Of a DNA stretch of 64,000 nucleotides, positions 11,232-57,381 are shown in pieces (the stretch's first letter is position 1; every line of letters begins with the position of its first letter). This DNA is from Actinomycetota bacterium (GTDB taxonomy: Bacteria > Actinomycetota > Acidimicrobiia > Spongiisociales > UBA4744). A model generated the notes under the pieces. That model was not told the origin of the DNA, searched no databases, and was given only the letters and a program-made list of their open reading frames with translations. The translations under genes and the position numbers were made by a program. Location of the stretch: the NCBI GenBank assembly GCA_013152275.1, contig JAADGS010000026.1:1-64000 (forward strand), in the 5' to 3' direction.

Positions 11232-11246
11232 CTGTTGCAGGCATGA

Positions 11247-11272
11247 TCGAGGGGCCCGATCGGGCCCCTCGA
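11247..11272. terminator. Perfect 26-bp palindrome between convergent genes
   Basis: TCGAGGGGCCCGATCGGGCCCCTCGA. No U-tract. Confidence 0.6.
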
Positions 11273-11294
11273 GGCGGCGTCGATTCGAGGGCGG

Positions 11295-11777
11295 TCAACC
11301 CTGGGAGATCAGGCCCGGGCGGATACGGCTGCGAATCTGTTCGCGTGCGTCGGCGAGGCGTTCGGCGAGCATGTGGGTGAATCGCGCCAGGAGGTGGAGC
11401 CCAACGGCCGGGTTCTCTTCGAAGGCCTCCCAGAGTTCCGCGACGGGCATGACGACGAATTCAGAGTCCTCCATACAGACCGCACTGAACGGATGCACGG
11501 CGTCGTCCGCGGTTGCCAACGCCGAAGCGCCGATCACCTGGCCCGGCCGGCTGACAACATTCATGAGGATGTCCTCGCCCCCGTGGATGGGGTGCTGTCG
11601 ATTCGCAACCATGCCGGTGACGAGCACGAGCAGGGTGTCGGAAGGTGCGCCTTCCTCGAATACCCGCTCACCGGTCTTGGCCGTGAGCAGGTTGGTGTGC
11701 GGTGCAAGCACGGCTATCGCTTCGTCGTCGAGCGAGCGGAAGAAGGGGAGGGTCTTGAGTTCGGCAGGATCGATCAT
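11295..11777 (-). CDS. Cyclic-nucleotide-binding domain protein (Crp-like, no HTH)
   Basis: LPFFRSL...VFEEGAPSDTLLVLVTG...GQVIG pattern of cNMP domains; 160 aa. Confidence 0.85.
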   Translation of the reverse strand: MIDPAELKTLPFFRSLDDEAIAVLAPHTNLLTAKTGERVFEEGAPSDTLLVLVTGMVANRQHPIHGGEDILMNVVSRPGQVIGASALATADDAVHPFSAVCMEDSEFVVMPVAELWEAFEENPAVGLHLLARFTHMLAERLADAREQIRSRIRPGLISQG

Positions 11778-13769: not shown

Positions 13770-15407
13770 CTAATACCCCTCTTGCGGAGTGTGGCAGTCG
13801 GTGCAACGGATCTCTTTCCACTGGTTGCCGATATTCACCGGATGGCGAAACTCGAGACCGAGAAGGTTGTTCTCCAACTTCGACAGGTCGGTGGACGGGC
13901 CCTGGGCCACGATCGTGTGACATGTGTCACACGCGCCGTTGATCTTCTCGCCGGTATCGGAGACCTTGTTGGAGCCGTGGCATCGGAAGCAGCCCTCGTT
14001 GACGAAGTGGCTGAGGTTGTTCAGATGCGACCGGTAGTCGGTCTTCATCACGGGAAAGAAGTTGTTGTCATAGACACGAATCAGTGCCTCCGAGGCCGTT
14101 TCGATCTTCTCCCGGAGTTGATCGACACGCTCGGGATATGCTTGCTCGTAGTAGGAGAGCAACGTCGAACGGATCTTCTCGGCAGCCTCTTGCTGTGTGC
14201 TGTACGGACTGTTGAGAAGGTCCAGGCCGACCCGCCGGACGTAGGGCAGATCAGGAGAGATGGCCCCACGGGCGATCTCCTGGTTGATCGCCACCGCCGG
14301 CGGCAGGAAGAGGTGGCTGGGTCGGTTGTGGCAATCCATGCAATCGAACACCCTGAGTTTGGTCTTGGGGTCGTTGGGGTCGGGGTAGTCCGACACGGTG
14401 GGGTCTTTGTAGACGGTCACGGTGCCGTCGTCCCGGGTCACACGTATCCACGGGATCACCTGCCGTTTCTCGTCGGTGGCCAGATACTCGATCTTCTTGC
14501 CGATGAGCATGTGCCAGTGGATCCCTTCCTGGGAGCCGGTGCGTGTGTCGCTGCCACCGATATTCACCAGCAGACTGATCGTCCACGGCGAATTCTGCTC
14601 GTCGGTCTGGTAGTAGCGGCGTGTGACCAGTTTCCGGCCGTAGAACTGATTGGGCCAGTGGCATGTCTCGCAGGTTTGCTGGGCAGGGCGCAGGTTCTTG
14701 ACCGGCGTCGGGATCGGCCGGGGGTAGGAATTCGTCAGGGTGGCAACGACCTGGCGAATGCCATCCACCTTCGACCGCACCCAGAATGATGTTCCCGAAC
14801 CGATGTGGCATTCGACACAGGGGACTCGAGCGTGCGGCGAGTGTTCATAGGTGACGGCCTCGGGTTTCATCACCTTGTGACATGTCTGTCCGCAGAACTC
14901 GACCGAGTCTGTCGCCTCGTAGCCTTTGAAGCCGCTCCAGCCGACCACCAGCAGCACAAGGGCCCCGACACCGAGGAAGACCCAGAGGCTGCGCATATAC
15001 CGCGGGTTCGAAGGCTCGACACGGAGCGTGAACTGCACCTTTTCGCCGCGACGCCTCGCGTTCATCACCTGGCGCCGCACCGCAAGCAGGAAGATGATGG
15101 CGCCGAGGAGAACTACGGACGGCATCGCGACATAGGTCACGAGAGAGCGGTACGAATTCTGGCTGGCTGACGTCATGTCGATGGCTACGAGCACCAGGAA
15201 CATCAAGCCGCCTGCGACCATGATGGCGCCACCCACTCCCGCCAGTGGATGCCGGTACAGGCTTCGTGTCTCGATGGTCGGCTCGGTCTCGCTCGGAGGG
15301 TTGGCAGAGACAGGGCTCGAGCCGGCAGGTGGTTGCCCAGGTGGAGTGACGGAGGACTCGTCGGGTGTGCTGGCGTTGGGCTTGTCTGGGGGGTTCACTT
15401 CAGACAC
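13770..15407 (-). CDS. ImcH-like NapC/NirT-family inner-membrane heptaheme cytochrome c
   Basis: Three N-terminal TM helices, NapC/NirT-like FCGQTCH (CX3CH) and 6 CxxCH. Motifs KVDG.RQ, LRPA..TCETCHWP, GIHWH and DCMDCHNRPSH. GTG start after AGGGAGG. Confidence 0.85.
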   Translation of the reverse strand: MSEVNPPDKPNASTPDESSVTPPGQPPAGSSPVSANPPSETEPTIETRSLYRHPLAGVGGAIMVAGGLMFLVLVAIDMTSASQNSYRSLVTYVAMPSVVLLGAIIFLLAVRRQVMNARRRGEKVQFTLRVEPSNPRYMRSLWVFLGVGALVLLVVGWSGFKGYEATDSVEFCGQTCHKVMKPEAVTYEHSPHARVPCVECHIGSGTSFWVRSKVDGIRQVVATLTNSYPRPIPTPVKNLRPAQQTCETCHWPNQFYGRKLVTRRYYQTDEQNSPWTISLLVNIGGSDTRTGSQEGIHWHMLIGKKIEYLATDEKRQVIPWIRVTRDDGTVTVYKDPTVSDYPDPNDPKTKLRVFDCMDCHNRPSHLFLPPAVAINQEIARGAISPDLPYVRRVGLDLLNSPYSTQQEAAEKIRSTLLSYYEQAYPERVDQLREKIETASEALIRVYDNNFFPVMKTDYRSHLNNLSHFVNEGCFRCHGSNKVSDTGEKINGACDTCHTIVAQGPSTDLSKLENNLLGLEFRHPVNIGNQWKEIRCTDCHTPQEGY

Positions 15408-15514
15408 CGAGTTCCTCCCTGAAGTTGCATTGAGTGCCGGAGTGCCGGGATGGATGTGGTCGTCGATCCTGAATCATGGAGCCCTTCGGTCCGAAAAGCA
15501 ACCCGGCACGAACG

Positions 15515-16417
15515 TCAGGGCACCGTGCTACTCGGGGCGGTTTGTCCGGACTCCGCAGGTGGAGTGTACGGCACATAGATCTGGACAGGGCTGGCGGGAG
15601 GCGGAATCGTCTTGATCGCCACCTGTTCGTAGGTGAGGAACACAACGACAACGATGGCAAACGCAACGGTGAATGCGCCATAGGCGGTGAAGAACGCCTT
15701 TCGTCTCTTTCGCAGAACCTCAGGAGGCACGGGCGGTACCGGAGGAGCACCGGCCTTGATCTCGGCCAGCTGGGCCGGATGCTCCTCGAGCATCTCTTCT
15801 TCGGTCAGATATCCGTCGAACATGCTTCGGTTCAGGTGCCGTAGGTGGACGTGATAGGTGTGCCACACGAGGATTGCCAGAACCGCGAGGATGGCTTCAC
15901 CCCCGTGCACCGCTTTTGCGGCCGGAATGAACTCGCCGGGGAGGAGTCTGGTCGTGGAGATGGGGTTCCACATCATCAGGCCGGTGACCACCATGAGGAT
16001 CGTTCCCCAGATGATTGACCAGTACTCCATCTTTTCGTCGAATGTGAACTTGCCTTGGCGGGGAGGATCGGAGCGAAGACCGAGGCGGAAGGCCACGGTC
16101 TGCACTGCTGCACGAGCATCGTCGAGCCCTGGAAGCATCTCCCGCCCCATCCGAAGCACGAAGAATCGATACCCGGCCGTGCCGATGTGATACACGGTGG
16201 CGACGAGGACCATCGCGGCGAGCGAATGATGGATCAGTCGCGTGGTGTTGATCCCCCCGAGCGCACCAATGATCGCCTTCGAAAGCCATCCTTCCGCCCA
16301 CTTTTGCACAAGGCCGGTGATGGCGAGACCGGTGAAGACGAAGACCTGCACCCAGTGTTCGACACGGTCGGAGACCGAGAATCGAAGATAGCGGGGTTGG
16401 GATGTGACCTCAGGCAT
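15515..16417 (-). CDS. FdnI/HydC-type di-heme cytochrome b subunit
   Basis: RFSVSDRVEHW, LAITGL, IHH, GKFTFDEKMEYW, VHGGEAILA and WHTYHVH. Start overlaps the upstream stop (ATGCCTGA). Confidence 0.9.
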   Translation of the reverse strand: MPEVTSQPRYLRFSVSDRVEHWVQVFVFTGLAITGLVQKWAEGWLSKAIIGALGGINTTRLIHHSLAAMVLVATVYHIGTAGYRFFVLRMGREMLPGLDDARAAVQTVAFRLGLRSDPPRQGKFTFDEKMEYWSIIWGTILMVVTGLMMWNPISTTRLLPGEFIPAAKAVHGGEAILAVLAILVWHTYHVHLRHLNRSMFDGYLTEEEMLEEHPAQLAEIKAGAPPVPPVPPEVLRKRRKAFFTAYGAFTVAFAIVVVVFLTYEQVAIKTIPPPASPVQIYVPYTPPAESGQTAPSSTVP

Positions 16418-17546
16418 CTCGCACCTCACGTCGGGTTCTTCGCTTCTCCCTGTAACGGCCGAGCGCATCGATGATTACGTACAGCAGCATCCCTCCGATC
16501 ACGGTCGGGATCAGAATCCGGTAGAAGAGTCTCGCGTAGTAGACGATCGGCCACTCGTGGGGAGTCGCCGTATAGTGGCTCATCCACGCCGTCGGGAAGT
16601 TGGTGTCGGCATCGGGATGGCAACGCCGACAGGTGGTGAGCAGGTTCGCCTTGAACACGGTGCTCTCGGGGTCGCTTGGCGGCATGATGTCATGCACACC
16701 GTGGCAGGAGACACAAACCGGCTTGTTGGTCTCCTGGCCCGGCGCCAGGTCCTCGAAGAGGGTCACCGTCTTGCCGTGGAAGTCTGCGACATAGGTGCTG
16801 AACACGTCCGTGCGGATCCCGTACTTGTCCATCATCTCCTTGTTCGCGTGGCACTTCTTGCAGATGAGTGGGGAGAACAGCCGGAACGGAGAGTTGATGG
16901 GTCCTTCGATTTCGTGGATACCGTGGCAATCGGTGCACGTGGGGACATCGGGATTGCCATCGGTCAGTGCACTCCCGTGGACACTTTCTTCATAACGGTC
17001 ATAGATTTCCGCATGGCACTTCCGGCACGTCTTGGGGATGTCCACTCGGGCTATGGGCGGGTTGGTCACGTAGTGAGGGTCGTGGCAGTCGGAGCAGACT
17101 GCGGCCTGTTCGATCCCTTCCTCTCGCGCCTTGGCGTGGACGCTGTCCGTGGTCTTGGTTGCCTGCTCGAGGTGGCAGACGGTGCATGATTCAGATTCCC
17201 GGATCGCATACTGACGAAGGTCTTGGGCGGTTGGAGGATCGTGGGGAATGGATGTGATGCTCGTGTGGCACAGAATGCATTTCATGTTCCAATACGCATG
17301 GATCGAAGCCTGCCAGCGAGTCTTGTCGATGGTGGCGTCGAGATGTTCTCCAGAGGGCAGTTCGGTGGAGAGCCCAGAGTTGCCGTGGCAGCCGAGGCAC
17401 GTGGCGTTGTCCCATTGCGAGGTGTCATTGGTGAGGCCGACTTCGGGCGGGTTCTGTTCGGCACTCACGGACGTCGGACGGCCGACAGCGAACACGAACA
17501 GGATGGCGACGAAGCATGTCAGCCAGAGAATCCTTCGATATCCCAT
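16410..17546 (-). CDS. Nonaheme cytochrome c with signal peptide and C-terminal TM anchor (CbcL periplasmic-domain-like)
   Basis: 9 CxxCH with recurring 'SIH/SVH/DFH' distal His segments and a C-terminal hydrophobic helix. ATG 17546 after GGAGGG. Confidence 0.9.
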   Translation of the reverse strand: MGYRRILWLTCFVAILFVFAVGRPTSVSAEQNPPEVGLTNDTSQWDNATCLGCHGNSGLSTELPSGEHLDATIDKTRWQASIHAYWNMKCILCHTSITSIPHDPPTAQDLRQYAIRESESCTVCHLEQATKTTDSVHAKAREEGIEQAAVCSDCHDPHYVTNPPIARVDIPKTCRKCHAEIYDRYEESVHGSALTDGNPDVPTCTDCHGIHEIEGPINSPFRLFSPLICKKCHANKEMMDKYGIRTDVFSTYVADFHGKTVTLFEDLAPGQETNKPVCVSCHGVHDIMPPSDPESTVFKANLLTTCRRCHPDADTNFPTAWMSHYTATPHEWPIVYYARLFYRILIPTVIGGMLLYVIIDALGRYREKRRTRREVRDA

Positions 17547-17646
17547 CGTCCCTCCGTGCCGGTTCAACTCGCCCATCCGCGTCGATCCACTCGTCCACCC
17601 CTCCGCACCAACCCGTATCATGGTCCCATTCGAGTCGCGCATTCAA

Positions 17647-18401: not shown

Positions 18402-19553
18402 GTGGCCGCTGATCGCTTCGACGCTCGCCATTGGAAGCAGCGACTGCCGGTGCCTTCGGTCCGCGCAATCGTGTCGACGGGTGGGTTCGTGTTACTCGCC
18501 CTGGTGCTTTTCGCTACGACGGCGTGGGCGCTCGATGGCCCGACGCCACCACAGCCGAGTGATCCTGTCGGTACACACGTGGCACCACACGGTGGCTACT
18601 CGGCAAGCAGCAACATGTGTCTCCAATGTCACGACGTGCACGATGCGAGCGGGGATTATGCGTTGCTGTGGAAGAACAGCGTTACCTTCATGTGCGCGAC
18701 GTGTCACGGTCTGCATGGGCTCCGCGGAACGCTCGGGCTCCCGAGCGACTGCACCGAGTGCCATGACATGCACAGCGGGGGAAGCTTCTTTCCAACGCCT
18801 CGAGACCCGATCGGACCGGGAACCCTCGGCACGGTTTCGAGTCGGAGCGCCTACAACACATCCACACCGGCATCGACACACGGCATCGGGGCCTTGGCAC
18901 CTCCCGGTGAGACCGGCATCGTGATGACCCGGTCCGACTGGCAGTACTCGTGGGGTGCGAGTGGCCCGCCGCCGGCGGACGCGACGAACCCGTCGGGCTC
19001 CGGGACGGCATCCGACATCGGTGGCGGGCTCTACTGTGGAAGCTGTCACACTCCGCACGGGGACTTCGGACAGGTCGTGAACAAGTGGACGGCAGCCGAC
19101 GAGGGAAGGTCGATATGGTGGACCAACCCGACGACAGGCGACCAGGAACAGAAACTCTTGCACTATGACACCGGAACCGGCGCGTGGCAGGTGTGCGATA
19201 CCGGCGTCACGAATTGTCAGTTCGCCCAAGTGCGAGATGCCGAGGACCAATTGGTGTACCTGTACGCGTACAAGCTGCTGTCGGCATATCCCAATCATGC
19301 GTACTCGACGCTTCAGAGCTACGGTACCGAACAGAATGACGACGACGGGGCTCGGTGGTGCGGCACCTGTCACAGCTCCCGAGTCGACGGCGCCGGCTAC
19401 CACAATCATCCGACAGGGTGCAGTGCGTGTCACGGCAATCCGACAGGTGGAGCATCAACGGACTTCCCGCACACATCGTCCACGGAGTCGCTCCTCATCG
19501 CCTACCCGGACGCGCTCTGTGTCACCTGTCACACGTCGGGCAGCCTGCCATAG
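18402..19553 (+). CDS. Secreted heptaheme cytochrome c, OmcS-like motif order
   Basis: Signal peptide ending AWA. PHGGY..CLQCHDVH, CATCH, CTECH, LYCGSCHTPHG, AYKLL, WCGTCH..HNHP, CSACH and terminal LCVTCH. No membrane anchor. Start uncertain. Confidence 0.9.
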   Translation: MAADRFDARHWKQRLPVPSVRAIVSTGGFVLLALVLFATTAWALDGPTPPQPSDPVGTHVAPHGGYSASSNMCLQCHDVHDASGDYALLWKNSVTFMCATCHGLHGLRGTLGLPSDCTECHDMHSGGSFFPTPRDPIGPGTLGTVSSRSAYNTSTPASTHGIGALAPPGETGIVMTRSDWQYSWGASGPPPADATNPSGSGTASDIGGGLYCGSCHTPHGDFGQVVNKWTAADEGRSIWWTNPTTGDQEQKLLHYDTGTGAWQVCDTGVTNCQFAQVRDAEDQLVYLYAYKLLSAYPNHAYSTLQSYGTEQNDDDGARWCGTCHSSRVDGAGYHNHPTGCSACHGNPTGGASTDFPHTSSTESLLIAYPDALCVTCHTSGSLP

Positions 19554-19693
19554 AGGTGTGTGGTGCAACGAGGCACGCGCCCCGCAGTTTGGACCTTCGG
19601 CGAGACGACGCCGGTTGAACGGTAATCGTCGTCAGGGTCCGTCGGTTTTGCTCAGCTACCATGTAACTCTCCGGCCGAACGGCCAATCGGTTC

Positions 19694-19707
19694 GGGTCCT
19701 TTGGCCC
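19694..19707. promoter_or_regulatory. DevR/DosR-like box upstream of the decaheme cytochrome
   Basis: GGGTC-CTTT-GGCCC. Confidence 0.5.
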
Positions 19708-19969
19708 CATGGAGGGGGGCTGAGCGCAGATACTGTGGACTGTGACCCGACGGGGACGAGAAGAACTCCTGATCGAGACAGGGAGGCGGCGAAGTTGATG
19801 ACACGAGAAGTTGGGCATGCTCTCCGCTGCGTCCTCGAGGTCGAGCGACCTCGATCGCTGTCTACCGCCTCGGCCGGCTCGATGCGGGATCCCGGTCGCT
19901 TCCACGCCAACACCGAATCGAGGGGGAGGCGAGATGTGATCGACCTTCCTCGCGGCGGCTGAGAGTTCC

Positions 19970-20803
19970 ATGGCGCGCCATCGAAACCTGCGTAGGGTCC
20001 TGTCCGTTGTCGTGGTGATCGGAGCGATCGCCGTCGCCGGTGTACTCGTCGTCTCGCGGTCCCGCAACGGGAATACGCCGGTGACTTCGACGACCGTCGT
20101 CGACAACAGTGCATTTGCAGGGTGCACCGAGTGCCACGCCGACTTCGACGCCGCTCTCCTTTCCGGTCAGGTGCCGACGCTGACCTTCACGCACGCGCAG
20201 CACAAGGCGGCTGCCGGCGCCGTGGAGTGCGGTTCCTGTCATCCTTCCGAGACCCACGTTGGTCGCATAACCTTCAAACCGACGATGGAGGCCTGTTTCA
20301 GCTGTCATGGTGCGGCTGCCGCCTTCCCGATTCCCTGCGCCGCGTGTCATCCTCTCTCCGTGGTGCCCAAGCCTCCGAGCCACAAGGCGACAGATTGGGG
20401 CACGACGCACGGCATCGGTGTATTGGATGTCGAGTCCTCCTGTACCACCTGTCACTCACAAACGACGTTCTGTGATGCTTGTCACGGGGTCGAGATGCCT
20501 CACCCGAAAGGCTGGGACGGAAAACCACACGCCCTGGCGTTCTTCGACGCGGGTTCCGACGTGTGCGCGAAATGCCATTCGTTCGGAATCGACGTGAAGA
20601 GTCGCGACAAGTGTGACACGTGTCACCACTCTGGAGGACCCCAGGATCAACCCTGGGTGAAGGCACACCAAGATGTGGTTGGAGCCGAGGGCGGCGGTTC
20701 GTGCTTTGCTTGCCATGAGCCGGCGACGTGCGTGCAGTGTCATCTTCACGGTATCGAGAACCTCGATGCCGATCGGGCACGCCTTCTCGAGACTGGCGGG
20801 TGA
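19970..20803 (+). CDS. Membrane-anchored decaheme cytochrome c
   Basis: N-terminal TM helix; 10 CxxCH in 277 aa; c7/c3-like FTHAQH; PSH..W..HG repeats. Confidence 0.92.
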   Translation: MARHRNLRRVLSVVVVIGAIAVAGVLVVSRSRNGNTPVTSTTVVDNSAFAGCTECHADFDAALLSGQVPTLTFTHAQHKAAAGAVECGSCHPSETHVGRITFKPTMEACFSCHGAAAAFPIPCAACHPLSVVPKPPSHKATDWGTTHGIGVLDVESSCTTCHSQTTFCDACHGVEMPHPKGWDGKPHALAFFDAGSDVCAKCHSFGIDVKSRDKCDTCHHSGGPQDQPWVKAHQDVVGAEGGGSCFACHEPATCVQCHLHGIENLDADRARLLETGG

Positions 20804-20827
20804 CATGGTCCGGAAGCACCGCGTCGG

Positions 20828-21284
20828 ATGGTTGCATTCCTGAGGCAGCAGGCGATCATTCTTACGAGTTTGCGGCCGCGCTCCAGACCGTCAAGCATCA
20901 GGCGTGTCTTCCATCACGCGATCGACCCCGAGACCGACCTCCCACAGGCCTCGGCTCCTGGAGATGTCTCCTGTCTCGGATGCTGCCCCGGGCCCGGAGC
21001 CGTTGGCGCACGATCTCGTCGGTCCTTCTCGTCACAGAGTTCGTTCAACGGGTCACTCGTTTTCCCGCGGCCGACAGAACTCTTGGAACGCGTCCATGTC
21101 GAGGTGCCATGCCCTCAGGCGTCCGCCGGGACCGGCCTGCCATCCATGGGCGGGAGGCATCGGGCCGAGAGGATTTGGTGTATGCATGAGCTGTCATACT
21201 GACGCCTGCCACGCGAGGCGCCACTCCAACCACGCATCCAACCCATCCGAGAAGAAACCGCTGCGTACCGGAGGTCAACGATGA
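20828..21284 (+). pseudogene. Degenerate multiheme cytochrome remnant
   Basis: One intact CMSCH (21183-21197) plus broken motifs (SRCH, ACH twice, CLGCC in another frame). The ORF ends in an ATGA overlap with the next gene. Confidence 0.45.
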
Positions 21285-21940
21285 CAAAGCGTCTAGTGGC
21301 GGTCGCTGCTTTGCTTCTCATTGTGGTGGCGGGTCTGGCGGCTGCCATCTGGTATCGAACCGGGGTGCGTGACCCCGTCATCGTCAAGGTCGACGGCGTA
21401 CCCATCCACGAGTCCCAGGCCGAGGCCAGGATCGCCGGGATTGCGGCGGTGCACAAGGACATCGCCTCGACTCTCGGACCCGATTGGCGCTCGTTGGTAC
21501 TCCAGTCACTCGTCGACGACGTTCTCATGCAGCAGGAAGCACGTCGAGCCGGCATCGAGGTGATCGATCAGGACGTCGACGCGTCACTCGACTCCCTGCG
21601 CAGCAAGTTTCCTTCCGAAGCCGACTGGAGGCGTTTCCTGGAGGAACAAGGCATCGATCAAACCGAACTCGAGAGGAGGATCCGACTCCAGCTCGTCGGT
21701 TCCAGGGTCTATGAGGAAGTGACGGCTGCGGTTGCTCCCACCGAGGACGAATTGCGCGCCTACTACCGGGCTCACGAGTCCGATTTCACCGTGGATGGCA
21801 AGGTGCAGCCCTTTCTCGAGGTCCGCAACTCGATCGAGGACAAGGTGACGAAGCAGATGCGGGACGAGGCGTTCGGTACCTGGCTGCAGCAGCGCCGGAG
21901 CGAGGCGGACATCGTGGTTGTGAGCGATGAGTGGCGGTAG
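21281..21940 (+). CDS. SurA N-terminal / PrsA-type membrane-anchored foldase chaperone
   Basis: TM anchor, KVDGVPI, LQSLVDDVLMQQEA..GIEV, EDELRAYY and WLQQRRSEADI. No recognisable parvulin catalytic insert. Confidence 0.85.
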   Translation: MTKRLVAVAALLLIVVAGLAAAIWYRTGVRDPVIVKVDGVPIHESQAEARIAGIAAVHKDIASTLGPDWRSLVLQSLVDDVLMQQEARRAGIEVIDQDVDASLDSLRSKFPSEADWRRFLEEQGIDQTELERRIRLQLVGSRVYEEVTAAVAPTEDELRAYYRAHESDFTVDGKVQPFLEVRNSIEDKVTKQMRDEAFGTWLQQRRSEADIVVVSDEWR

Positions 21941-22144
21941 CAGTCCGAGCATCGGGCTTTCCAGAGGCCTCCTCGTCGGCACCCTCGAAAGGTTACGACT
22001 CGTCCGGAGCGGCGCGGAAGGAGTCGAACCGTTCTACGGAGTGGCAGCAGCCGGTGCGCTTGTTCTCTTCGAAGCCAACTTCGGTTTCGCTCGGACGCCG
22101 CACGGGCTCGGACCTTCGGTCGCGGCCCCGTGAAGGACCACGGC

Positions 22145-23293
22145 ATGGAATCGCCACAAGAACCGTCGCTCGAGCGGGAAAGGCGGCCTTTGGGGCAGGC
22201 CACGATTCACCGCCTGCTCTATGTCCTCATCGGTCTTCTCGGCGTAGCGGCGGTCATCCTGCTCGTCATGCTCATCTGGCTGCTACGTCCCCAGCCCACC
22301 TCGATGCCGGTTGCCGTGGCGGGATGTCCCATGGAGATCACCCGATCGATCTACGGATACGGAACGAAACCGGCCGAGTTGCTGGTTCAACCTCTCGCGG
22401 TCACCTTCGACGGGACAGGCAATGTGTGGATCTCCGATACGGGGAACGCCCGAGTGGTCGAGTTTGGTCCCAACGGGAAGCTGGTTCGCTCCGTGGGTGA
22501 TGACGGCGGTCAGGGACGTCTCCACAGTCCCTACGGCCTGGCGTTCGGCAGCGACTTCGAGCGTCTCTACGTGGCGGATTGGACGCGACGAGAAGTGGTG
22601 GTCTTCTCGGCCGACGGACACTACGTGAAGAGCCTGCCCGCAGGCGACCAGGACCTTGCCGTGTTCGGTCCCGACGGGTTCTCTCCCTACGATGTCGCCG
22701 TTCGCGGAGCCCAGATCGTGGTTGCCTCCAACGATGGCCTGTATTTCTTCGACAGGTCCGGGCACGTCGTCGATCGGTGGGGAGGTGACACGCGAGGATC
22801 GGACGTGGGTAGTTTCGCCTTCCCCGATGCCCTCGCCATCGACCCGACAACCGGCAACGTGTACGTTGCCGACACCCTCAACCGGCGCGTGGTTGCCCTC
22901 GACGGGGACGGCAACGTGCTCTGGGTCTCGGGAAAGCGTGACGAGGAGGGCAAGATCGTCGGCTTCTGGCAGCTTCCAAGATCGGTTGTGGTCGGCCCGG
23001 ATGGTCTCGTCTACGTCACCGACACGTTTCGAGCCCAGGATCACTGCGCCGGCACAGGACACATCGTGGTGTTGAAGCCGACGGGAGAGCTGGTCTCCGA
23101 GTTCGGTGCCGCCGGGCAATCGGAGGACACGCTCAGTTTCCCGGAGAAGATGGCGATCGGCCCGGAAGGTACGTTCGCCCTCGCCGACCGCGAGAACAAC
23201 CGGGTGGTGCTCTTCACCGTCGGTCCGCTGCCACCGGCCGATCCTGGTGAAGCGAGCCTCTACGAGAAGTCGTTCGTGCGTTTCGGACCGTGA
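22145..23293 (+). CDS. Membrane-anchored NHL-repeat beta-propeller protein
   Basis: Repeated P..LA.D..GNVYVADT.NRRV units; one N-terminal TM helix. Confidence 0.9.
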   Translation: MESPQEPSLERERRPLGQATIHRLLYVLIGLLGVAAVILLVMLIWLLRPQPTSMPVAVAGCPMEITRSIYGYGTKPAELLVQPLAVTFDGTGNVWISDTGNARVVEFGPNGKLVRSVGDDGGQGRLHSPYGLAFGSDFERLYVADWTRREVVVFSADGHYVKSLPAGDQDLAVFGPDGFSPYDVAVRGAQIVVASNDGLYFFDRSGHVVDRWGGDTRGSDVGSFAFPDALAIDPTTGNVYVADTLNRRVVALDGDGNVLWVSGKRDEEGKIVGFWQLPRSVVVGPDGLVYVTDTFRAQDHCAGTGHIVVLKPTGELVSEFGAAGQSEDTLSFPEKMAIGPEGTFALADRENNRVVLFTVGPLPPADPGEASLYEKSFVRFGP

Positions 23294-23378
23294 CCGACCA
23301 CCGGCGACGGTGACGAGGTCTCCGAACGTCGTACCTAAACTTGTCGGGCCGGGAGTACTTTCGAGGAGGCCGATCGCA

Positions 23379-24080
23379 ATGGCGCGATCCGTGGAACGCA
23401 TGATCGGGTACGGGAAGCTCCTGGCCGATCTCGCCGAGAGCGGATGTCCGGTCTGTCGAGGGTCGGTTGGTGCCGCGGCGAGGTACTTGGAGAGCCTGCT
23501 CTGGGAGAACGTGAACGATGCCGAGGTCCGGGAAGGACTCCGGCGCGACCACGGATTCTGTCGGGAACACTCTTTGGCCCTCCTGCAGGTGGCGGCGGCG
23601 CGAAGTGAGGCGCTCGGTGTGGCCATCCTCTACGAAGATTTGCTGGATCACATCGAGCAGGAGATCGTCACCGTGGGAGCGAGTTCGCGACGCAGACCTT
23701 CCCGCTCTTGGTTGAATATGAGATCCGGCCCGTCATGTCGGGCTTGTACGGTCGCCGACGATGTGGCCGTCAACTACCTCCGCATCATCGCGACTTCCGA
23801 ACCGGATACCGATCTGGATCGACATCTCGGAGGAGCTGCCCTGTGCTTTCCTCATTTTTCGAGAGGGCTGGAGATTCGGGGGCTCGATCATGAGCGGCTC
23901 GAGGCGGTGTATCTACGAGGGTCGGTTTCGATTCGAGCCGAGCTCCGGCGTCTCATCGATCACGCAGACTATCGACGGGCCGACGAACCCCTGGGGAACG
24001 AGAAGGACGCCTGGGCACGCGCCGTCCACCTCGTCGTCGGTTCTCCCGTGTACGGTGCCGTCGCGGAGTCGGGATCATGA
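23379..24080 (+). CDS. DUF6062-like Cys/His-rich protein
   Basis: GCPVC, ENVND..R..L....GFCREH, CRAC, LCFPHF and DYR...EP...EKDAW.RA. ATG after GAGGAGG. Confidence 0.75.
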   Translation: MARSVERMIGYGKLLADLAESGCPVCRGSVGAAARYLESLLWENVNDAEVREGLRRDHGFCREHSLALLQVAAARSEALGVAILYEDLLDHIEQEIVTVGASSRRRPSRSWLNMRSGPSCRACTVADDVAVNYLRIIATSEPDTDLDRHLGGAALCFPHFSRGLEIRGLDHERLEAVYLRGSVSIRAELRRLIDHADYRRADEPLGNEKDAWARAVHLVVGSPVYGAVAESGS

Positions 24081-25435
24081 GCAACTCGGAGTCGGGGCAA
24101 GGAGCAGCCCGGCCGACCGACGAATGTCCCGTCTGCAGCGAAGTGTCCCTGGCCCGCCAGAGACATTGGTTCTGGGTGTTCGCCGAGAAACTCGGGGATG
24201 GGGCGTTCCTGACCCGACTGGGAACGGGAGGCGGCTACTGCGTCAGGCACGCTCGTGAGCTGCTTCTTCACGAGCAGGGGGAACGCACGGCCCGGGGGTT
24301 CCAGTTCGTGTTGCGAGGATGGCGTGCCGGCCTCGGAGCTTCGATGCGTCTCGACTGCCCTGCATGCCGCATCGAGGCCGAGACGGAGGCGTATGTCCTG
24401 CGCCTGCTGAGTCGCGGATTGTGGAGCGGAGATCAGCAGACACGTCTGGACCCGGACGCCCTGTCATGTCTGCCACATGCCCGGATGCTCCTCGAGCAGG
24501 CGCAGGAAGGGATTCTGCCCGAGGCTCTGAAGCGGTTGGGTGCAACGGTCGATCGAGTGCGAGCAGGTGACGGTGGATCGCAGGCCGAGATCCACACCGC
24601 GATCGGTCACGGGTACGACGAGACGTTTCGGAGGCCTGAACGTTGCGATACCGATGCCACGGCCGTGCTCTCGTTCGACGCTGCCGATCGTGCACTTGCC
24701 CAGGGATGGTGCCCTCTCTGTCTGGCAGGCCGTGAGGCGTCGGAGAACGTCATCGGATGGCTCGGGCATCCGGATCGAACCGACCGGGACCAGGATGATT
24801 TTGCCCGGCTGTGCCCCGCCCACCTGTGGGATGCCGCGGCGAACGATCCGGAAGCTTCGGCCCGGACGATGCAGCGGATCCGTCGCACCTGGATCAGGAG
24901 CCTCGGGGGACTCGAGGCGCTTGTCGAAGGGGCCGCGCAATCCGATCGGAAGGGACGATCGGGCAACGGGTCGCGCAGCAGGTTTCGCGGATGGTTGGAA
25001 CGCGCGTTCCCGAAACGCAGTCGCGAAGTCCAGTTCCGCAGGATCCTCGTGGAGGAGGAGTGCGTGGCGTGCGTCGCAGCCGTGACCGCGGTCGACCGTG
25101 GCATCGCACTCCTCGATGCCTACCTTCTCGACACGGATCGAAGCGATTGGTACCTACGCTCGAGCGGCGTGTGCCTGCAGCATGCCTACGCCGCGATCCC
25201 ACACCTCGGTGAGCAGCCTGCGCTCATTGTGACCGACCGGGCAAAGACCCTCATCGCGCGCACGATGTGGGGCCTCGACGAGGCGATCCGCAAGGTGAGC
25301 TGGTCGGTGCGGTATGAGCCATCCGGGGAAGAGACCGAGACGTGGCGTGAAGCGGTCGTGCTCACCGTCGGACGAGGCGTGTTGTGCTCAGACTGGCTCG
25401 CGCCCGTTCTGCAGCGTCCCGAGCGAGCCGTATAG
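24077..25435 (+). CDS. Tandem DUF6062-like protein
   Basis: Four CxxC and four CxxH motifs, with the same C-terminal 'EP.G.E...W..AV....G' signature as the upstream gene. ATGA overlap. Confidence 0.65.
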   Translation: MSNSESGQGAARPTDECPVCSEVSLARQRHWFWVFAEKLGDGAFLTRLGTGGGYCVRHARELLLHEQGERTARGFQFVLRGWRAGLGASMRLDCPACRIEAETEAYVLRLLSRGLWSGDQQTRLDPDALSCLPHARMLLEQAQEGILPEALKRLGATVDRVRAGDGGSQAEIHTAIGHGYDETFRRPERCDTDATAVLSFDAADRALAQGWCPLCLAGREASENVIGWLGHPDRTDRDQDDFARLCPAHLWDAAANDPEASARTMQRIRRTWIRSLGGLEALVEGAAQSDRKGRSGNGSRSRFRGWLERAFPKRSREVQFRRILVEEECVACVAAVTAVDRGIALLDAYLLDTDRSDWYLRSSGVCLQHAYAAIPHLGEQPALIVTDRAKTLIARTMWGLDEAIRKVSWSVRYEPSGEETETWREAVVLTVGRGVLCSDWLAPVLQRPERAV

Positions 25436-52115: not shown

Positions 52116-52724
52116 TCAGCCGCCGGATTGCTTCTGGGTCTGACCCTCATTGAGATCTCCCGGCGTTCCACCCGCCAGCAGCGTGTCGATCGTGCTGCTG
52201 ATCTCGAACGGCGAGAGGGGACCAGTCTTCTTGGCCATGATCGTCCCGTCGGGTGAGATGAAGAACGTTTCAGGGACGCCGAATACGCCGAAGTCGATCG
52301 CAACTCGCGATTCCGGGTCGATGACGTAGGCCGTCTTCTCCGCTCTGCCGAACTGGTCGAGAAACGCGATCGCCCGGCGTGGCTCATCTTGGTAGACGAC
52401 TCCAACGAAACGCACGGGTTCGTCGGCGTATGCGGCGGCCGCCGCCTCCAGAACCGGATGTTCCTGCCGGCAGGGAAAGCACCAGGAGGCCCAGAAGTTC
52501 ACCACGACGACGTTTCCTCGCAGGTCCGCGAGGCTGAGCACGCCATCCTGCTCGAGGTACGCCAACGAGTCCTCAGGGGCGGGCTTGCCGATGAGGGGGG
52601 AGGCGATCAGGCTCGGGTCCTTCCCGAACCCACTGCTGAACACAACGACCATCGCGATCACGATCGCGAGAATCGCAGCGAGACTCAGCCACATACCGAT
52701 CCTTGGTCGCGTGGTCTCGCTCAT
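52116..52724 (-). CDS. ccmG: CcmG/DsbE thiol-disulfide oxidoreductase
   Basis: TM anchor, SPLIGKPAP, NFWASWCFPC and GVPETF. Confidence 0.9.
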   Translation of the reverse strand: MSETTRPRIGMWLSLAAILAIVIAMVVVFSSGFGKDPSLIASPLIGKPAPEDSLAYLEQDGVLSLADLRGNVVVVNFWASWCFPCRQEHPVLEAAAAAYADEPVRFVGVVYQDEPRRAIAFLDQFGRAEKTAYVIDPESRVAIDFGVFGVPETFFISPDGTIMAKKTGPLSPFEISSTIDTLLAGGTPGDLNEGQTQKQSGG

Positions 52725-54754
52725 GCCGGCTGTCCGGTCGTCGTCAGTTCTTCACGAGCGGGCTTACGCACCAGCCACGCCCACAGGCCGCCGACACTGA
52801 CCAGGAACCCGCCGGCCCAGACCATCCAGAGCACGGGGAACCAGAACAGGTCGAGCGTGACCTGCCTCTCATCGATCGCCCGCAGTGACAGGTAGAGGTC
52901 GCCGGCCAGAGACCCGCGAACGTCGGGAGACGCCACGGACTCGCGACCGTTGGCGTACTGGTTGAGGCGTGGCTGCAACTCTGCGACGACGCGTCCGTTC
53001 TTGACGACTTGTATGAGTGCTCCGGTCACGAACCGGTTCGATTCGACCCTGTCGAACGTGTTCACATAGGTGAGGTCGAATCCGGCGAACCGAGTCGTGT
53101 CTCCAGGAGTGAGTTGTACCTGGTTGCGAAGTGAGAGGTTCGCGGAGAGTGCGATTCCGATCACCAGGATTGCCACCGCGACATGTGCGATCTGTCCGCC
53201 CCAGTATCCGGGATCGGAACGCATCGTGTACAGCGACGCCGCGGCGAGATTCTCCTGGCGACTCTCGGCGCGTCTGCGGCTCGTGTCCCAGAGTTGGCGG
53301 GCGACGACGGCGATGACGAACGTGCCGAGCAGAATCGCCAGGACGACCGAGAGGCTGCGTCTGCCGAACACGATTCCGACGGCGGTGACCGCGAGGGCAA
53401 ACCGCAAGGGATTTCGGATACGGGCCCACACGACCGCTCCTCGCGCGGAGCGCCAAGGAGTGATCGGGCCGACCGCCATCGTCAGCAGCAAGAGGAAGCC
53501 GATGGGCACGGCGAGTCTATCGAAGAAGGGACGACCGACCCCGACTTCGGACCCGGTGATGGCGTCGATGATGAGTGGATACAACGTCCCGGTCAGGACG
53601 ACGAAGGTGAACACTGCCAGGATGAGGTTGTTGGCGAGCATCATTCCTTCGCGGCTGGCGAGGGAATCGAGCCGAGGCGCGGAAGCCACCATGTGCGAGC
53701 GTGTGGCGAACAGTCCGAACGACAAGACAAGCGTCACCGCGAGGAACCACAACAATGCGGGACCGATCGGTGACTGCGTGAAGCTGTGCACCGAGTTGAT
53801 GATCCCCGAACGTGTGATGAACGTTCCGAGGATGGTCAGTGAGAACGTCGAGATGACGAGGACGAAGTTCCAGCTCTGCAACATGCCGCGCCGCGACTGC
53901 ACGGCGGCAGAATGCAGGAACGCGGTGGCGGCCAGCCACGGCATGAACGAGGCGTTCTCCACCGGGTCCCACGCCCAGAAGCCGCCCCAGCCGAGCACCT
54001 CATACGACCAGAGACCGCCGAGTACGATGCCGGCGGTCAGGAACACCCAGGCGACGAGGGTCCATGATCGGGTCCGCCTGAGCCAGTCCGTCCCGCCGGA
54101 ACCGATCATGAGTGCGGACATGGCGAAGGCGAACGGTACCGACATTCCCACGTAGCCGATGTAGAGCATCGGCGGGTGGATTGCCATGAGCGGATGGTTC
54201 TGCAGCAGTGGGTTCGGTCCGAAACCTTCGAGGGCCGCTTGCGCGTGGACCCATGGGAATGGGCTTGTCGCCATGCAGCCCACTTGCGCCGCCTGCGTGC
54301 AGACCTCGAACGGATTCGAGATTGTCAACATCATTCCGAAGAAGAACGTCGAGATGATCCCCATGATCGCCAGCGCCCCCGCTCCGAGAGCATCAGGTTT
54401 GTGAAGGCGTTGTGACGCGAAGTACACGGTGGCGACAAAGACGGCCAGGATGAATCCCCACAGGACGATACTGCCTTCGAGCGCAGCCCATGCCGATGCC
54501 ATCTTGTACAGAAGTGGGGTGCTCGACGTCGAGTTGTTCGCAACGTACGCGAGAGAGAAGTCGTTGCTCAGCAGTCCGATCTCGAGAGCGAGCATCGCCA
54601 GGATCCCACCGCCGAGGAGTCCGTACACCGGGTACTTCAGTCTGGTCACCGGTGTCTTCGTGGATGCAAACTGGACTTTGAACCCTTGAAAGGCGAGTGT
54701 GATCGAGGAGATCAGTGCAATCAGAACGCCAAGAATGCCGAGTGTCGCGGCCAT
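52721..54754 (-). CDS. ccmF: Cytochrome c heme lyase CcmF
   Basis: NPLLQNH, HPPMLY, WGGFWAWDPVENAS, SVHSF and AHVAV. Confidence 0.96.
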   Translation of the reverse strand: MAATLGILGVLIALISSITLAFQGFKVQFASTKTPVTRLKYPVYGLLGGGILAMLALEIGLLSNDFSLAYVANNSTSSTPLLYKMASAWAALEGSIVLWGFILAVFVATVYFASQRLHKPDALGAGALAIMGIISTFFFGMMLTISNPFEVCTQAAQVGCMATSPFPWVHAQAALEGFGPNPLLQNHPLMAIHPPMLYIGYVGMSVPFAFAMSALMIGSGGTDWLRRTRSWTLVAWVFLTAGIVLGGLWSYEVLGWGGFWAWDPVENASFMPWLAATAFLHSAAVQSRRGMLQSWNFVLVISTFSLTILGTFITRSGIINSVHSFTQSPIGPALLWFLAVTLVLSFGLFATRSHMVASAPRLDSLASREGMMLANNLILAVFTFVVLTGTLYPLIIDAITGSEVGVGRPFFDRLAVPIGFLLLLTMAVGPITPWRSARGAVVWARIRNPLRFALAVTAVGIVFGRRSLSVVLAILLGTFVIAVVARQLWDTSRRRAESRQENLAAASLYTMRSDPGYWGGQIAHVAVAILVIGIALSANLSLRNQVQLTPGDTTRFAGFDLTYVNTFDRVESNRFVTGALIQVVKNGRVVAELQPRLNQYANGRESVASPDVRGSLAGDLYLSLRAIDERQVTLDLFWFPVLWMVWAGGFLVSVGGLWAWLVRKPAREELTTTGQPA

Positions 54755-54758
54755 TCGA

Positions 54759-55178
54759 TCAGCCCCCCTTTGCCGGTACGAGCGTCTCGTGCTTGTCGTC
54801 TTTTGCGTTGTACTGCTCGTCGTGTTTGACGATCAGCACGTCAGAGACGAAGTGGGAACCCTGCCATGAACCCTCGACAACGGCGCCGGCTCCGCCCTGG
54901 AATAGCTGCGGCGGGGTACCTTCGTTGTCGACGTCGATCGTGCTCTGCCCATCGGTCACCTGAAAGCTGACGCCGGTGGGAGTTGTCTTGATGCTGCCTT
55001 CGACGACCAGTCCTCCGAGGCGGAACCGTTCACCGTCCGGGAAGTCGGCGCGCTGTTGCAGCGCCTCGGTGGGGGTGAGGTAGTAGACGAGGTTCTTGTT
55101 GAGGTTGCCGAACGCGAAGAAACCGACCGCGATCAACACCACGATGATGGCCGGAATGATGAACCAGCGATGTGTCAT
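54759..55178 (-). CDS. ccmE: Heme chaperone CcmE
   Basis: YYLTP, RLGGLV and KHDEQY (HxxxY). Confidence 0.95.
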   Translation of the reverse strand: MTHRWFIIPAIIVVLIAVGFFAFGNLNKNLVYYLTPTEALQQRADFPDGERFRLGGLVVEGSIKTTPTGVSFQVTDGQSTIDVDNEGTPPQLFQGGAGAVVEGSWQGSHFVSDVLIVKHDEQYNAKDDKHETLVPAKGG

Positions 55179-55309
55179 GGTCGGTCACCTCTCTTGAATC
55201 GTCTGGAGACGGAACGGAGGCGCACCACGAGGCTGATGGCGTAGATCGCTATGAACCCGTAGACGAGACAATAGGCAAAAACCACCCAACTTCCAGTGAA
55301 CTCAGTCAT
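55175..55309 (-). CDS. ccmD: CcmD-like small membrane protein (44 aa, not in the ORF track)
   Basis: MTEFTGSWVVFAYCLVYGFIAIYAISLVVRLRSVSRRFKRGDRP; overlaps the ccmC stop and the ccmE start. Confidence 0.75.
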   Translation of the reverse strand: MTEFTGSWVVFAYCLVYGFIAIYAISLVVRLRSVSRRFKRGDRP

Positions 55310-56051
55310 CGGTGTCACCTCCCAGGATCGGGGCCGTTATGCCGGCTCCGGCGATCTCCACATTCTCGTTTGCTTCTCGTTGTTCGATGGCATCTGCCAT
55401 CTGTGCGATCCACACCCGGGTCACCATGAACGCCAGATAGATCAGGGTGAAGGCGGCCAGATTCACCATCAGCGCCCGCAACATCAGAGGATCGATGGAG
55501 GGGTTGCCGGCACGCTCGAACGTCTGGGGGCGCAGCACCGTTGCCGTCTGATGCAGCGTGCGCCACCACGTCACGGAGAAGTGGACCAACGGGACCTGCA
55601 CGAACGCGATGATGCCGAGCACTGCGGCGCGTTTCGCTCTCATATCCGGGTCCGCGATGCTGCGCCGCAAGGCGAGGTAGCCGAGATAGATGACGAGGGT
55701 CAACGCGGTGAGCACCAGCCTGGCGTCACCCCAGTCCCAGAACGTTCCCCAGACGGGCCGTCCCCACAGCATGCCGGTGACGAGTGCCGTGCCGGTGAAG
55801 AAGACGCCCATCTCCGCCGAGCTGGCGGCGACTCTGTCCCAGGAGTGCTTCTTGGTGACGAGATAGCCGATACCGGCGACCAGCACGACTCCAAAGGAGA
55901 GGTAGGCGAGCCATGCCGACGGGACGTGTACGTACATGATCTTTTGGAAGATTCCCTGGAACTCGTCGAGCGGTGCGGTGATGCCGAATGTCAATCCGAC
56001 GGCAACACCGACGACCGCGAGTGCCGAGAGTATCTGGACGGAACGCTTCAA
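55302..56051 (-). CDS. ccmC: Heme exporter CcmC
   Basis: YVHVPSAW, WGRPVWGTFWDWGDARL and WWRTLHQ. TTG start after GAGGAG. Confidence 0.95.
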   Translation of the reverse strand: MKRSVQILSALAVVGVAVGLTFGITAPLDEFQGIFQKIMYVHVPSAWLAYLSFGVVLVAGIGYLVTKKHSWDRVAASSAEMGVFFTGTALVTGMLWGRPVWGTFWDWGDARLVLTALTLVIYLGYLALRRSIADPDMRAKRAAVLGIIAFVQVPLVHFSVTWWRTLHQTATVLRPQTFERAGNPSIDPLMLRALMVNLAAFTLIYLAFMVTRVWIAQMADAIEQREANENVEIAGAGITAPILGGDTDD

Positions 56052-56728
56052 CGGGATGTCTCCTCGAGTGGGCGGGCAGTGATTACACCGACGACGGTGA
56101 GGGCAAGGTTCATGGCAATAAGCAAAATGATCCAATTAAGGATACTGCGATCTAATCGAAGCGCTTCCACCACTTGTGACGAAGCGATGAGGAGCGGAAC
56201 GGAAAGGGGGGCGACGAGCAGAGGGGCGAGCGTTGCGCGAGTTCGGAGGCCGGCTGTCACGCTTCCTGCCAGGGTGCCGATCAGGGCCAGGCCGATGGCG
56301 ACGAAGAGGACGATCAGCACGAGCCAGCCCCAACCGCGAATCGGAGAAGGGTTGTACAGCACGATATCGAGGGGTGCGAGCACGAGTTCGAACCCGAGCA
56401 AGAGCAGGGCACTGGCAGCAGAGCGGCCTATGAACGTCGCAGCAGGGTCTATACCCAGCAACGTCAGGAGCTCTCGCTGTGCCGGTTCGTCGGTCGCCGA
56501 CTGGCGGAAGGCGACCAACATGCCGAACAAGAGGGTGATGGCGAAGAACATGCCCGGTCCGATTCGCGCGAGCATCGCCTTTTCCGTCCCGATCGCCATA
56601 GGGATCAGGAGCAGTGCGACGGCGCCGAAGGGAACGGTGATCGACAGCACCTCTCCTGCCCGCCCTTCGATCTTGAGATCCTTTCGCATGATCTCGAACG
56701 CCTGACGCCAGAACTCACGTGCACTCAT
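56048..56728 (-). CDS. ccmB: Heme exporter CcmB
   Basis: KDLKIE.R, six TM helices, LAPLLVAPLSVPLLI; lies between ccmA and ccmC. Confidence 0.88.
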   Translation of the reverse strand: MSAREFWRQAFEIMRKDLKIEGRAGEVLSITVPFGAVALLLIPMAIGTEKAMLARIGPGMFFAITLLFGMLVAFRQSATDEPAQRELLTLLGIDPAATFIGRSAASALLLLGFELVLAPLDIVLYNPSPIRGWGWLVLIVLFVAIGLALIGTLAGSVTAGLRTRATLAPLLVAPLSVPLLIASSQVVEALRLDRSILNWIILLIAMNLALTVVGVITARPLEETSR

Positions 56729-57381
56729 GTTGCGACCAGACCCTCGACCGCAGTCCCGCCGACGAGCTCATAGGTTCGTTCCACCAGAGGGAGCATTCGG
56801 TTCGGCTCATGGGAGACGAGCACGACACATCCGCCCCGTTGCTTCACCTCCGCGACGGTTGCCTCGACCAGCATGGCGGCCATCTTGTCGAGGCCTGCAT
56901 GAGCTTCATCGAGGAGGAGCAGGTCGGGCCGCGTCATGAGCACGCGAGCGAACTCCACCCTTCGCAGCATCCCGTGAGATGAGTGATCGGCTCTGCGGTC
57001 CATGGCACCCCCCAACCCCACTTTCTCGAGGGAGCGCTTCACTCTCGCGTTCGCGATGCCGGCGAGGCGTGCAACGAATTCGAGGTTCTCTTCGAGAGTC
57101 AGTTCACCGTAGAGGGCGGGGAGATGCCCGAGGAGCGCCATACGGCGTCGAATCGCCGGCGACGGCTCGCGGCCGAGGGGTGCCCCCAGCACCGTTCCTT
57201 TGCCTTCCGTGGGGCGCAGCAGGGTGGCGAGAACTCTGAGAAGTGTCGACTTGCCGGAGCCGTTCGGACCAACGATGCCGATGCCTTCACCGGGATCGAC
57301 GCGGAGGGAGACATCGCGCAGAACGGTGAGCCGGCCGAACCGCACGCCGATGCCATCGAGCTTGATCAACGGTACGTTCAC
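56725..57381 (-). CDS. ccmA: Heme exporter ATPase CcmA
   Basis: GPNGSGKST, GHLPALYGELTLEENL, SHGM and LLDE. Confidence 0.9.
   Translation of the reverse strand: MNVPLIKLDGIGVRFGRLTVLRDVSLRVDPGEGIGIVGPNGSGKSTLLRVLATLLRPTEGKGTVLGAPLGREPSPAIRRRMALLGHLPALYGELTLEENLEFVARLAGIANARVKRSLEKVGLGGAMDRRADHSSHGMLRRVEFARVLMTRPDLLLLDEAHAGLDKMAAMLVEATVAEVKQRGGCVVLVSHEPNRMLPLVERTYELVGGTAVEGLVAT

Follow-up and report, generated by a model that had tools for sequence, protein, structure and literature searches.

A candidate cytochrome nanowire subunit, probably of the OmcS family, encoded with a SurA-type chaperone-domain protein and an NHL beta-propeller in an actinobacterium

To our knowledge, the structures of cytochrome nanowires solved so far come only from double-membrane bacteria and archaea, and the passage of electrons through the thick wall of single-membrane bacteria to minerals is poorly understood. 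In Geobacter, an omcS-companion (osc) cluster has reportedly been described by Shen and co-workers (2025, in Cell Chem Biol), and one of its products, OscH, is said to carry a prolyl isomerase. Here we analyzed a stretch of 64,000 nucleotides (hereafter the window; positions 1 to 64,000 of the forward strand of contig JAADGS010000026.1, assembly GCA_013152275.1) from an Actinomycetota bacterium of the class Acidimicrobiia, in which the gene for a secreted multiheme c-type cytochrome is followed on the same strand by genes for a decaheme cytochrome, a SurA-type chaperone-domain protein, and an NHL beta-propeller. A preliminary description of this DNA had proposed a single-membrane version of an OmcS-like filament together with its assembly machinery. 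We conclude that the cytochrome very probably belongs, if only distantly, to the OmcS family, because a family profile and the predicted fold both rank OmcS first and the fold match covers the full length of the protein. We further estimate, at a probability of roughly 45%, that this secreted protein, judged from its sequence, would form a head-to-tail heme wire carrying respiratory electrons through the cell wall of a single-membrane bacterium to minerals.

All 12 axial heme ligands of OmcS are histidines, 11 of them from the same subunit and one, that of heme 5, from the neighboring subunit (PMC6584659). Such intersubunit ligation is common to OmcS and OmcE (PMC9473688). The osc cluster is an eight-gene block, GSU2500-2493 (bioRxiv 10.1101/2025.11.06.686851), and PMC13194489 assigns folding to OscH, secretion to OscE, OscF, and OscG, and morphology to OscD. 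For the phylum treated here, PMC7399161, published in 2020, describes a hexaheme OmcS homolog with 28% identity and all six motifs in an actinobacterial (Coriobacteriales) bioanode genome. The family had thus already been noted in the phylum, although the report concerns one sequence and mentions, in its passages on the homolog, neither an accessory module nor a seventh heme. Cultivated Fe(III)-reducing Actinomycetota with many multiheme cytochromes also exist (PMC9686372). In our search of the literature on osc-like modules and on OmcS-type wires from Actinobacteria or Gram-positive bacteria, the Coriobacteriales homolog was the only report found, and no description was found of an association of SurA_N, TPR, and NHL proteins, of a seven-heme variant, or of a wire from a single-membrane bacterium; the 2025 survey of Shen and co-workers may list actinobacterial clusters. 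The review PMC12954529 does not mention "Gram-positive", "Actino", "osc", or "monoderm".

The cytochrome gene of the window (18402..19553, plus strand) encodes 383 amino acids, begins with a GTG start codon with GGAG 7 nt upstream, and matches Pfam Paired_CXXCH_1 (E 6.7e-17). Seven CxxCH motifs start at residues 73, 98, 117, 212, 320, 340, and 373. Residues 1-44 (18402..18533, plus strand) are predicted to form a Sec signal peptide: the sequence shows a positively charged stretch followed by a hydrophobic core and an AxA site (cleavage between TAWA and LDG), and both the core and the cleavage site are conserved across the family alignment. The C-terminus reads ...CHTSGSLP, and the protein has neither a membrane helix nor a sortase motif. 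Thus, the earlier characterization of a secreted, unanchored cytochrome with seven CxxCH motifs holds. Two other assignments were ruled out. A sortase-anchored surface protein would require an LPXTG motif followed by a helix, whereas here the LP is the very C-terminus, and a catalytic multiheme enzyme is contradicted by a full histidine count and by the lack of any heme motif other than CxxCH. A query of the ESM Atlas with the cytochrome returned generic Paired_CXXCH clusters only.

To delimit the family, a word-indexed search yielded 140 relatives at E <=0.001 among 5,924 candidates, and an exhaustive search of 1.84 billion representatives yielded 199 relatives at E <=0.001; pooling both searches, fragments included, gave 242 stored relatives. 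Six CxxCH motifs were present in 153 of these 242 sequences and seven in 15, and nearly all full-length members end in ...CHxxGxLP. Two alignments were built, a diverse one of 108 family sequences (A2) and a narrower profile of 57 sequences (A1). In A2, the columns of the six shared CxxCH motifs are invariant (108/108 rows), as are His219, Pro356, His357, and the C-terminal Pro, and the N-terminal GPTPP..GDP arm is conserved together with the invariant C-terminal LP. Outside the motifs there are exactly six conserved histidines (His63, 80, 160, 219, 336, and 357; His in 102-108 of 108 rows), a number that provides one distal ligand for each conserved heme and thereby points, from the sequence count, to bis-histidine coordination. 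A beta-sheet insert at residues 237-290 carries a conserved Cys265/Cys272 pair.

The seventh motif, CTECH, sits in an insert directly after heme 2 (18708..18794, plus strand), which also contributes His105 and His124. Of all the sequences aligned, only the window cytochrome and one other protein, P0002 (81% identical), have the insert and its heme motif, and these two also have His105 and His124 in common; His121 and His124 are histidines in 2 of the 108 alignment rows. The extra heme motif that had been pointed out here comes in addition to the six motifs of the family. As judged by these alignments, the window protein is a member of a mostly six-heme family, and its seventh heme is lineage-specific.

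A search with the A2 profile against 177,635 distinct PDB sequences returned OmcS (6ef8/6nef) as the best match, with an E-value of 1.6e-15 and 60.5 bits, followed by MtrA (7.2e-10) and OmcE (6.3e-8). In the HMMER alignment, A2 positions 58-269 are colinear with OmcS residues 8-258, which comprise hemes 1-4, and the pairing with 6ef8 brings together CxxCHxxH (heme 1), LL..CxxCH (heme 2), LxCxSCHxPHG (heme 3), and WCxxCH..HP (heme 4). The predicted fold leads to the same protein. Structure prediction by AlphaFold2 gave a poor model from A1, with a predicted local distance difference test score (pLDDT) of 58.7, and a model from A2 with a pLDDT of 84.5 and a predicted template modeling score (pTM) of 0.81, in which residues 112-128, within the extra-heme insert, form the only long stretch of low confidence. 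When the A2-based model was compared by VIA-align with 48,161 representative chains, 6ef8_A ranked first (Z 6.7; root-mean-square deviation 4.3 Å; 179 residues aligned at 23% identity, model residues 51-380 against chain residues 3-407) and was the only match with a Z-score of at least 5, the values for MtrA, OmcE, and OcwA being 4.8, 3.1, and 3.1. We take the AlphaFold2 weights used to be older than the release of 6ef8, which makes it unlikely that the model is a copy of OmcS. A lack of structural similarity to OmcS had been named beforehand as the outcome that would tell against the proposal; similarity was found, by the profile and, at a modest Z-score, by the predicted fold.

Compared feature by feature, the window protein and OmcS are both secreted, coil-rich multiheme proteins of about 340-400 mature residues, with six CxxCH motifs that correspond in order, an H-x-GG ahead of heme 1, aligned signatures of hemes 1, 3, and 4, and the same arithmetic of twelve histidines (six in the motifs and six conserved distal ones). 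They differ in that the identity over aligned residues is about 23% and in that hemes 4, 5, and 6 lie much closer together in the window protein (HNHPTGCSACH), as opposed to about 75 residues between motifs in OmcS. The beta insert at residues 237-290, the GPTPP..GDP arm, the C-terminal LP, and the seventh heme belong to the window protein. Moreover, its host has a single membrane, so that no passage through an outer membrane is needed. With regard to polymerization, His80 pairs in the alignment of A2 with 6ef8 with a histidine three residues after the heme-1 motif of OmcS. That histidine is presumably His16, the ligand that OmcS supplies in trans.

The neighborhood of the gene was then compared across the phylum in 401 evenly drawn genomes, with thresholds of E <=1e-20 for a family match and E <=1e-25 for an NHL homolog. 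The co-occurrences were counted by hand from two tables, and they should be read as counts and not as a statistical test, related genomes not being independent of one another. A family match was present in 38 of the 401 genomes and an NHL homolog in 37. Both occurred in 27 genomes, and in 22 of these 27 the two genes lie no more than 10 kb apart on one contig; the five exceptions comprise one pair separated by 21.8 kb (genome G014) and four genomes with the genes on different contigs. There were 11 genomes with a family match and no NHL match. Where a family match was lacking, an NHL homolog was rare (10 of 363 genomes). If only near-full-length family matches are considered, adjacency to NHL was seen in 10 of 15 genomes; some of the weaker matches span the N-terminal paired-CxxCH part only and may represent other cytochromes. 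Close orthologs of the short SurA_N protein (E <=1e-40) were restricted to six of the 401 genomes, all six with strong family and NHL matches, and in five of the six the SurA_N and NHL genes are neighbors. At a looser threshold, the SurA_N matches in 102 other genomes are longer open reading frames (ORFs) of the housekeeping SurA/PrsA-like type located elsewhere in the genome. A linkage of the cytochrome to the foldase and NHL genes, whose absence would likewise have told against the proposal, is thus seen widely for NHL and in the closest clade for SurA_N.

Individual loci give a similar picture. In loci L022 and L023, genes for several multiheme cytochromes, SurA_N, TPR, NHL, an OmcS-like protein, and an 11-heme cytochrome follow one another as a single co-directional cluster, and this order is the usual one. 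The window's own genome (G000) contains, on contig C9, a second module made up of NHL, TPR, SurA_N, 8-heme, 10-heme, 10-heme, and 11-heme genes, opposite which lies an OmcS-like paralog (L021, 10618-11716) split by one in-frame TAG into ORFs of 234 and 119 amino acids; the split may reflect a pseudogene, a sequencing error, or read-through. We also collected 15 related loci from public genomes, of which 13 are labeled Actinomycetota, Actinomycetes, actinobacterium, or Thermoleophilia, one Planctomycetaceae, and one "Bacterium HR12". Wherever a propeller is present among them, it is preceded by a TPR protein of the CcmH/CycH TPR family. A pair consisting of cytochrome b and a 7-9-heme cytochrome adjoins family members in L005, L006, L009, L010, and L012. 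No family match was found in any of the six genomes of the same order or the 14 genomes of the same class that were listed, while distant families of the phylum do have it, a patchiness that points to acquisition by transfer or to repeated loss.

Several observations were made in passing at these loci. In a Thermoleophilia metagenome-assembled genome (L015, 4266-8384; protein P0187, 1372 amino acids), an OmcS-like hexaheme domain is fused to a large N-terminal region of NosD/beta-helix and Ig-like (Big_13) type, and the fusion gene adjoins TPR, NHL, and a second OmcS-like gene. At the same locus, L015:1580-2242 was considered as a SurA_N gene and rejected, as no homology to SurA_N could be recognized in it. 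In L003 (5513-8167, E 4e-6) and L006 (2925-4580, E 5e-7), cytochromes of the 9-11-heme kind that usually flanks the OmcS-like gene match ZU5, a domain not commonly seen in bacterial cytochromes.

In the window itself, plus-strand ORFs bear out the four same-strand genes of the preliminary description. Downstream of the 383-residue cytochrome come a decaheme c-type cytochrome of 277 amino acids (19970..20803, plus strand; ten CxxCH motifs; Pfam Cytochrome_C7, E 4.8e-6), a protein of 219 amino acids with a SurA N-terminal chaperone domain (21281..21940, plus strand; Pfam SurA_N_3, E 7.4e-13; score 49.1 bits, cut-off 27.2), and an NHL-repeat beta-propeller of 387 amino acids without CxxCH motifs (22130..23293, plus strand; Pfam NHL, E 1.3e-17, 63.2 bits), whose matches among PDB sequences are NHL propellers, from E 1.6e-20. 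Inspected by eye, each of the three downstream proteins has one N-terminal hydrophobic helix, and all three are predicted to be membrane-anchored. Homologs of the decaheme protein, 41-45% identical, occur in the same clusters of L002, L007, L021, and L022. Assignment of the decaheme protein to the MtrA/DmsE family was rejected for want of a TIGR03508 match at E up to 0.01; it also differs from that family in having a membrane helix, MtrA/DmsE being soluble and periplasmic. The TPR proteins encoded between SurA_N and NHL in L002, L003, and L007 match PF23914 (TPR_CcmH_CycH; E 6.3e-11 in L002) and in this respect resemble CcmI/CycH, the TPR apocytochrome chaperone of System I cytochrome maturation, from which they differ in being short, stand-alone, membrane-anchored, and encoded beside a propeller. 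By this analogy, they may have a role in heme attachment. Directly 3' of the NHL gene lie two consecutive genes for DUF6062 proteins rich in CxxC pairs (23106-24080 and 24077-25435, plus strand); no such pair was seen beside the module in the relatives examined.

By kind of gene, the module resembles osc, in that genes for a chaperone, a beta-propeller, and further multiheme cytochromes accompany an OmcS-family gene. The actinobacterial relatives differ in adding a CcmH/CycH-like TPR gene and an 11-heme cytochrome gene. OcwA, the cell-surface nonaheme cytochrome of Thermincola potens (PDB 6i5b), offers another comparison, since here a Gram-positive metal reducer has a multiheme cytochrome beyond its membrane; it differs in heme number and family, and its fold match is weak (Z 3.1, versus 6.7 for OmcS).

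Taken as a wire, the system might work as follows. A divergent module upstream (13770..17642, minus strand), for which Pfam/NCBIfam matches indicate an NrfH-like 6-heme cytochrome (13770-15407), a cytochrome b561/FdnI-like membrane protein (15515-16468), and a 9-heme cytochrome (16410-17642), would oxidize quinol at the membrane, and the electrons would pass from it to the anchored decaheme protein and on to the OmcS-like polymer. Within the polymer, His80 would ligate heme 5 (C340SACH) of the next subunit, and the invariant tail ...GxLP, six residues after heme 6, would sit where the subunits meet. Outside the membrane, the anchored SurA_N protein may act as a chaperone of folding, heme loading, or ordered assembly, a role in which the CcmH/CycH-like TPR protein, encoded at the second locus of this genome, and the NHL propeller may share. 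The lineage-specific seventh heme, placed just after heme 2, could act as a side port. The window also contains System I maturation genes, for CcmA, B, C, E, F, and the thioredoxin-like CcmG (52116..57381, minus strand; Pfam); these, the other multiheme genes, and the detection of this DNA in hydrothermal-vent metagenomes were counted in favor of the wire as context. The operon region of System I (52116-58070, minus strand) adjoins an Lgt-like gene.

A number of results weigh against a wire, and the first group concerns the likeness to OmcS itself. Searches of the PDB sequences at E up to 10, with the single sequence as well as with the 57-sequence profile, did not return OmcS. Hemes 5 and 6 had no colinear alignment to OmcS in the A2 search; the OmcS-like order of landmarks originally read along the protein is no chance likeness, the four at hemes 1-4 being paired there. 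The Z-score of 6.7 is modest, below the value of about 8, a level that the tool itself cautions may reflect a common arrangement. A Foldseek comparison with OmcS and OmcE, which had been suggested as a check, came out negative: with the poor A1 model nothing was returned, a search that is meaningless, and with the A2 model OmcS was not among the matches, the only ones being Tudor-like matches to the beta insert. Taken with the many weak cross-matches that CxxCH-rich proteins yield, these results could mean that the likeness is convergent or at the level of motifs only, and that the gene neighborhood is coincidental. We consider this highly improbable, since two independent methods place OmcS first, the profile puts OmcS five orders of magnitude in E-value ahead of the next cytochrome, the fold match spans the full length, and adjacency to NHL recurs in 22 genomes of many genera.

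The second group concerns what the protein does, given its family. Among the four family members in G. sulfurreducens, only OmcS is known to polymerize (bioRxiv 10.1101/2025.11.06.686851), and membership in the family therefore does not imply a filament. The protein could instead be a monomeric or small-oligomer carrier or terminal reductase, diffusible or associated with the wall, that moves electrons from the decaheme protein to extracellular acceptors in an OcwA-like manner, while the SurA_N, TPR, and NHL proteins serve general maturation or quality control. We give this alternative substantial weight, short of expecting it to be true. It draws on the CcmH/CycH TPR domain of the neighboring protein in L002, on the presence of OcwA among the weak structural matches, and on the 10 genomes that have an NHL homolog but no family match. 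In addition, several of the related loci adjoin, besides the cytochrome b and 7-9-heme pair, 11-heme, Ccm, heme-biosynthesis, or FeoAB genes, and the location of family members beside heme-biosynthesis, Ccm, and FeoAB genes fits a general role of the accessory genes in cytochrome maturation. Among the 15 related loci, an NHL homolog was near in only four and SurA_N in only two.

Further points against a wire concern the accessory genes of the window. On the 219-residue protein, the Rotamase_2 profile reaches 22.6 bits, where 27 is the cut-off, and only its positions 1-54 of 121 are matched; this sub-threshold, partial match indicates that the SurA-type chaperone domain is not joined by a full prolyl isomerase. 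Of the SurA/PrsA-type foldase initially proposed, the chaperone domain is thus supported and the isomerase domain is not, in contrast to OscH, which is said to have one. The channel-like OscEFG have no counterpart in the window, where no channel-like gene was seen. The TPR and 11-heme genes of the relatives are absent from the window, so the anticipated set of cytochrome, chaperone, and propeller is present there, while the relatives insert between chaperone and propeller a TPR gene that the window lacks.

Three points nevertheless speak for the wire over a free carrier. A soluble cytochrome released without an anchor from a single-membrane cell would diffuse away if nothing retained it, the number of histidines and the aligned position of His80 fit the ligand scheme of OmcS, and the invariant C-terminal tail beside heme 6 suggests a conserved contact.

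The direction of electron flow was considered as well. In L002, the closest named relative (7344-11544), the decaheme, SurA_N, TPR, and NHL genes continue on one strand an operon opened by genes for Rieske, cytochrome b, and cytochrome b-C/c proteins; this operon ties the module there to a bc-type complex, in place of the window's NrfH/cytochrome b561 module. Such an arrangement would also suit reverse flow or soluble substrates, that is, uptake of electrons from Fe(II), sulfide minerals, or a partner cell, or a periplasm-like branch with Rieske and cytochrome b. Heme chains are known to conduct both ways, and a hydrothermal vent habitat offers reduced minerals. We regard this possibility as unlikely: no catalytic heme is evident, as each of the seven motifs is a CxxCH and the histidines suffice for bis-histidine ligation of every heme, and the cluster encodes no enzyme for a soluble acceptor. 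The direction itself is not readable from sequence. As to habitat, DNA of the window was found in three hydrothermal-vent metagenome runs of one study (word share 0.48-0.96); the sequencing runs in which window DNA was detected included no RNA run.

Whichever of these readings applies, the family constitutes a defined candidate: a relative of OmcS with a compact conserved module of about three genes, as opposed to the eight-gene Geobacter block, in uncultured Actinomycetota of hydrothermal vents and the subsurface. If the protein polymerizes, OmcS-type wires would extend to a new cell plan and a much simpler assembly system would become available for heterologous production. If it does not, a widespread actinobacterial cluster for extracellular electron transfer would still have been defined, and membership in the OmcS family alone would prove a poor predictor of wires. 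A broader and more doubtful proposal is that single-membrane bacteria build their own Sec-secreted OmcS-type nanowire, that the minimal module of SurA_N, CcmI-like TPR, and NHL proteins assembles it at the surface of the membrane and represents an ancestral or parallel osc, and that in the vent lineage the seventh, branching heme beside a solvent-exposed heme 2 serves as a side port through which electrons are loaded or unloaded and which would make an otherwise insulated wire "leaky", as in OmcZ.

A scan of the window for promoters and terminators gave signal at chance level only. Elsewhere in the window, a gene for a Kelch-repeat propeller of 674 amino acids (41527-43551, plus strand) lies amid several ORFs without Pfam matches and is flanked by genes for extracytoplasmic function (ECF) sigma factors. 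Finally, a lipoprotein-like cytochrome of 644 amino acids (9297-11231, plus strand) has an LAAC lipobox, 12 CxxCH motifs, and a C-terminal Cytochrom_C552-like region, and these features make it a further candidate for a cytochrome of the cell surface or wall.

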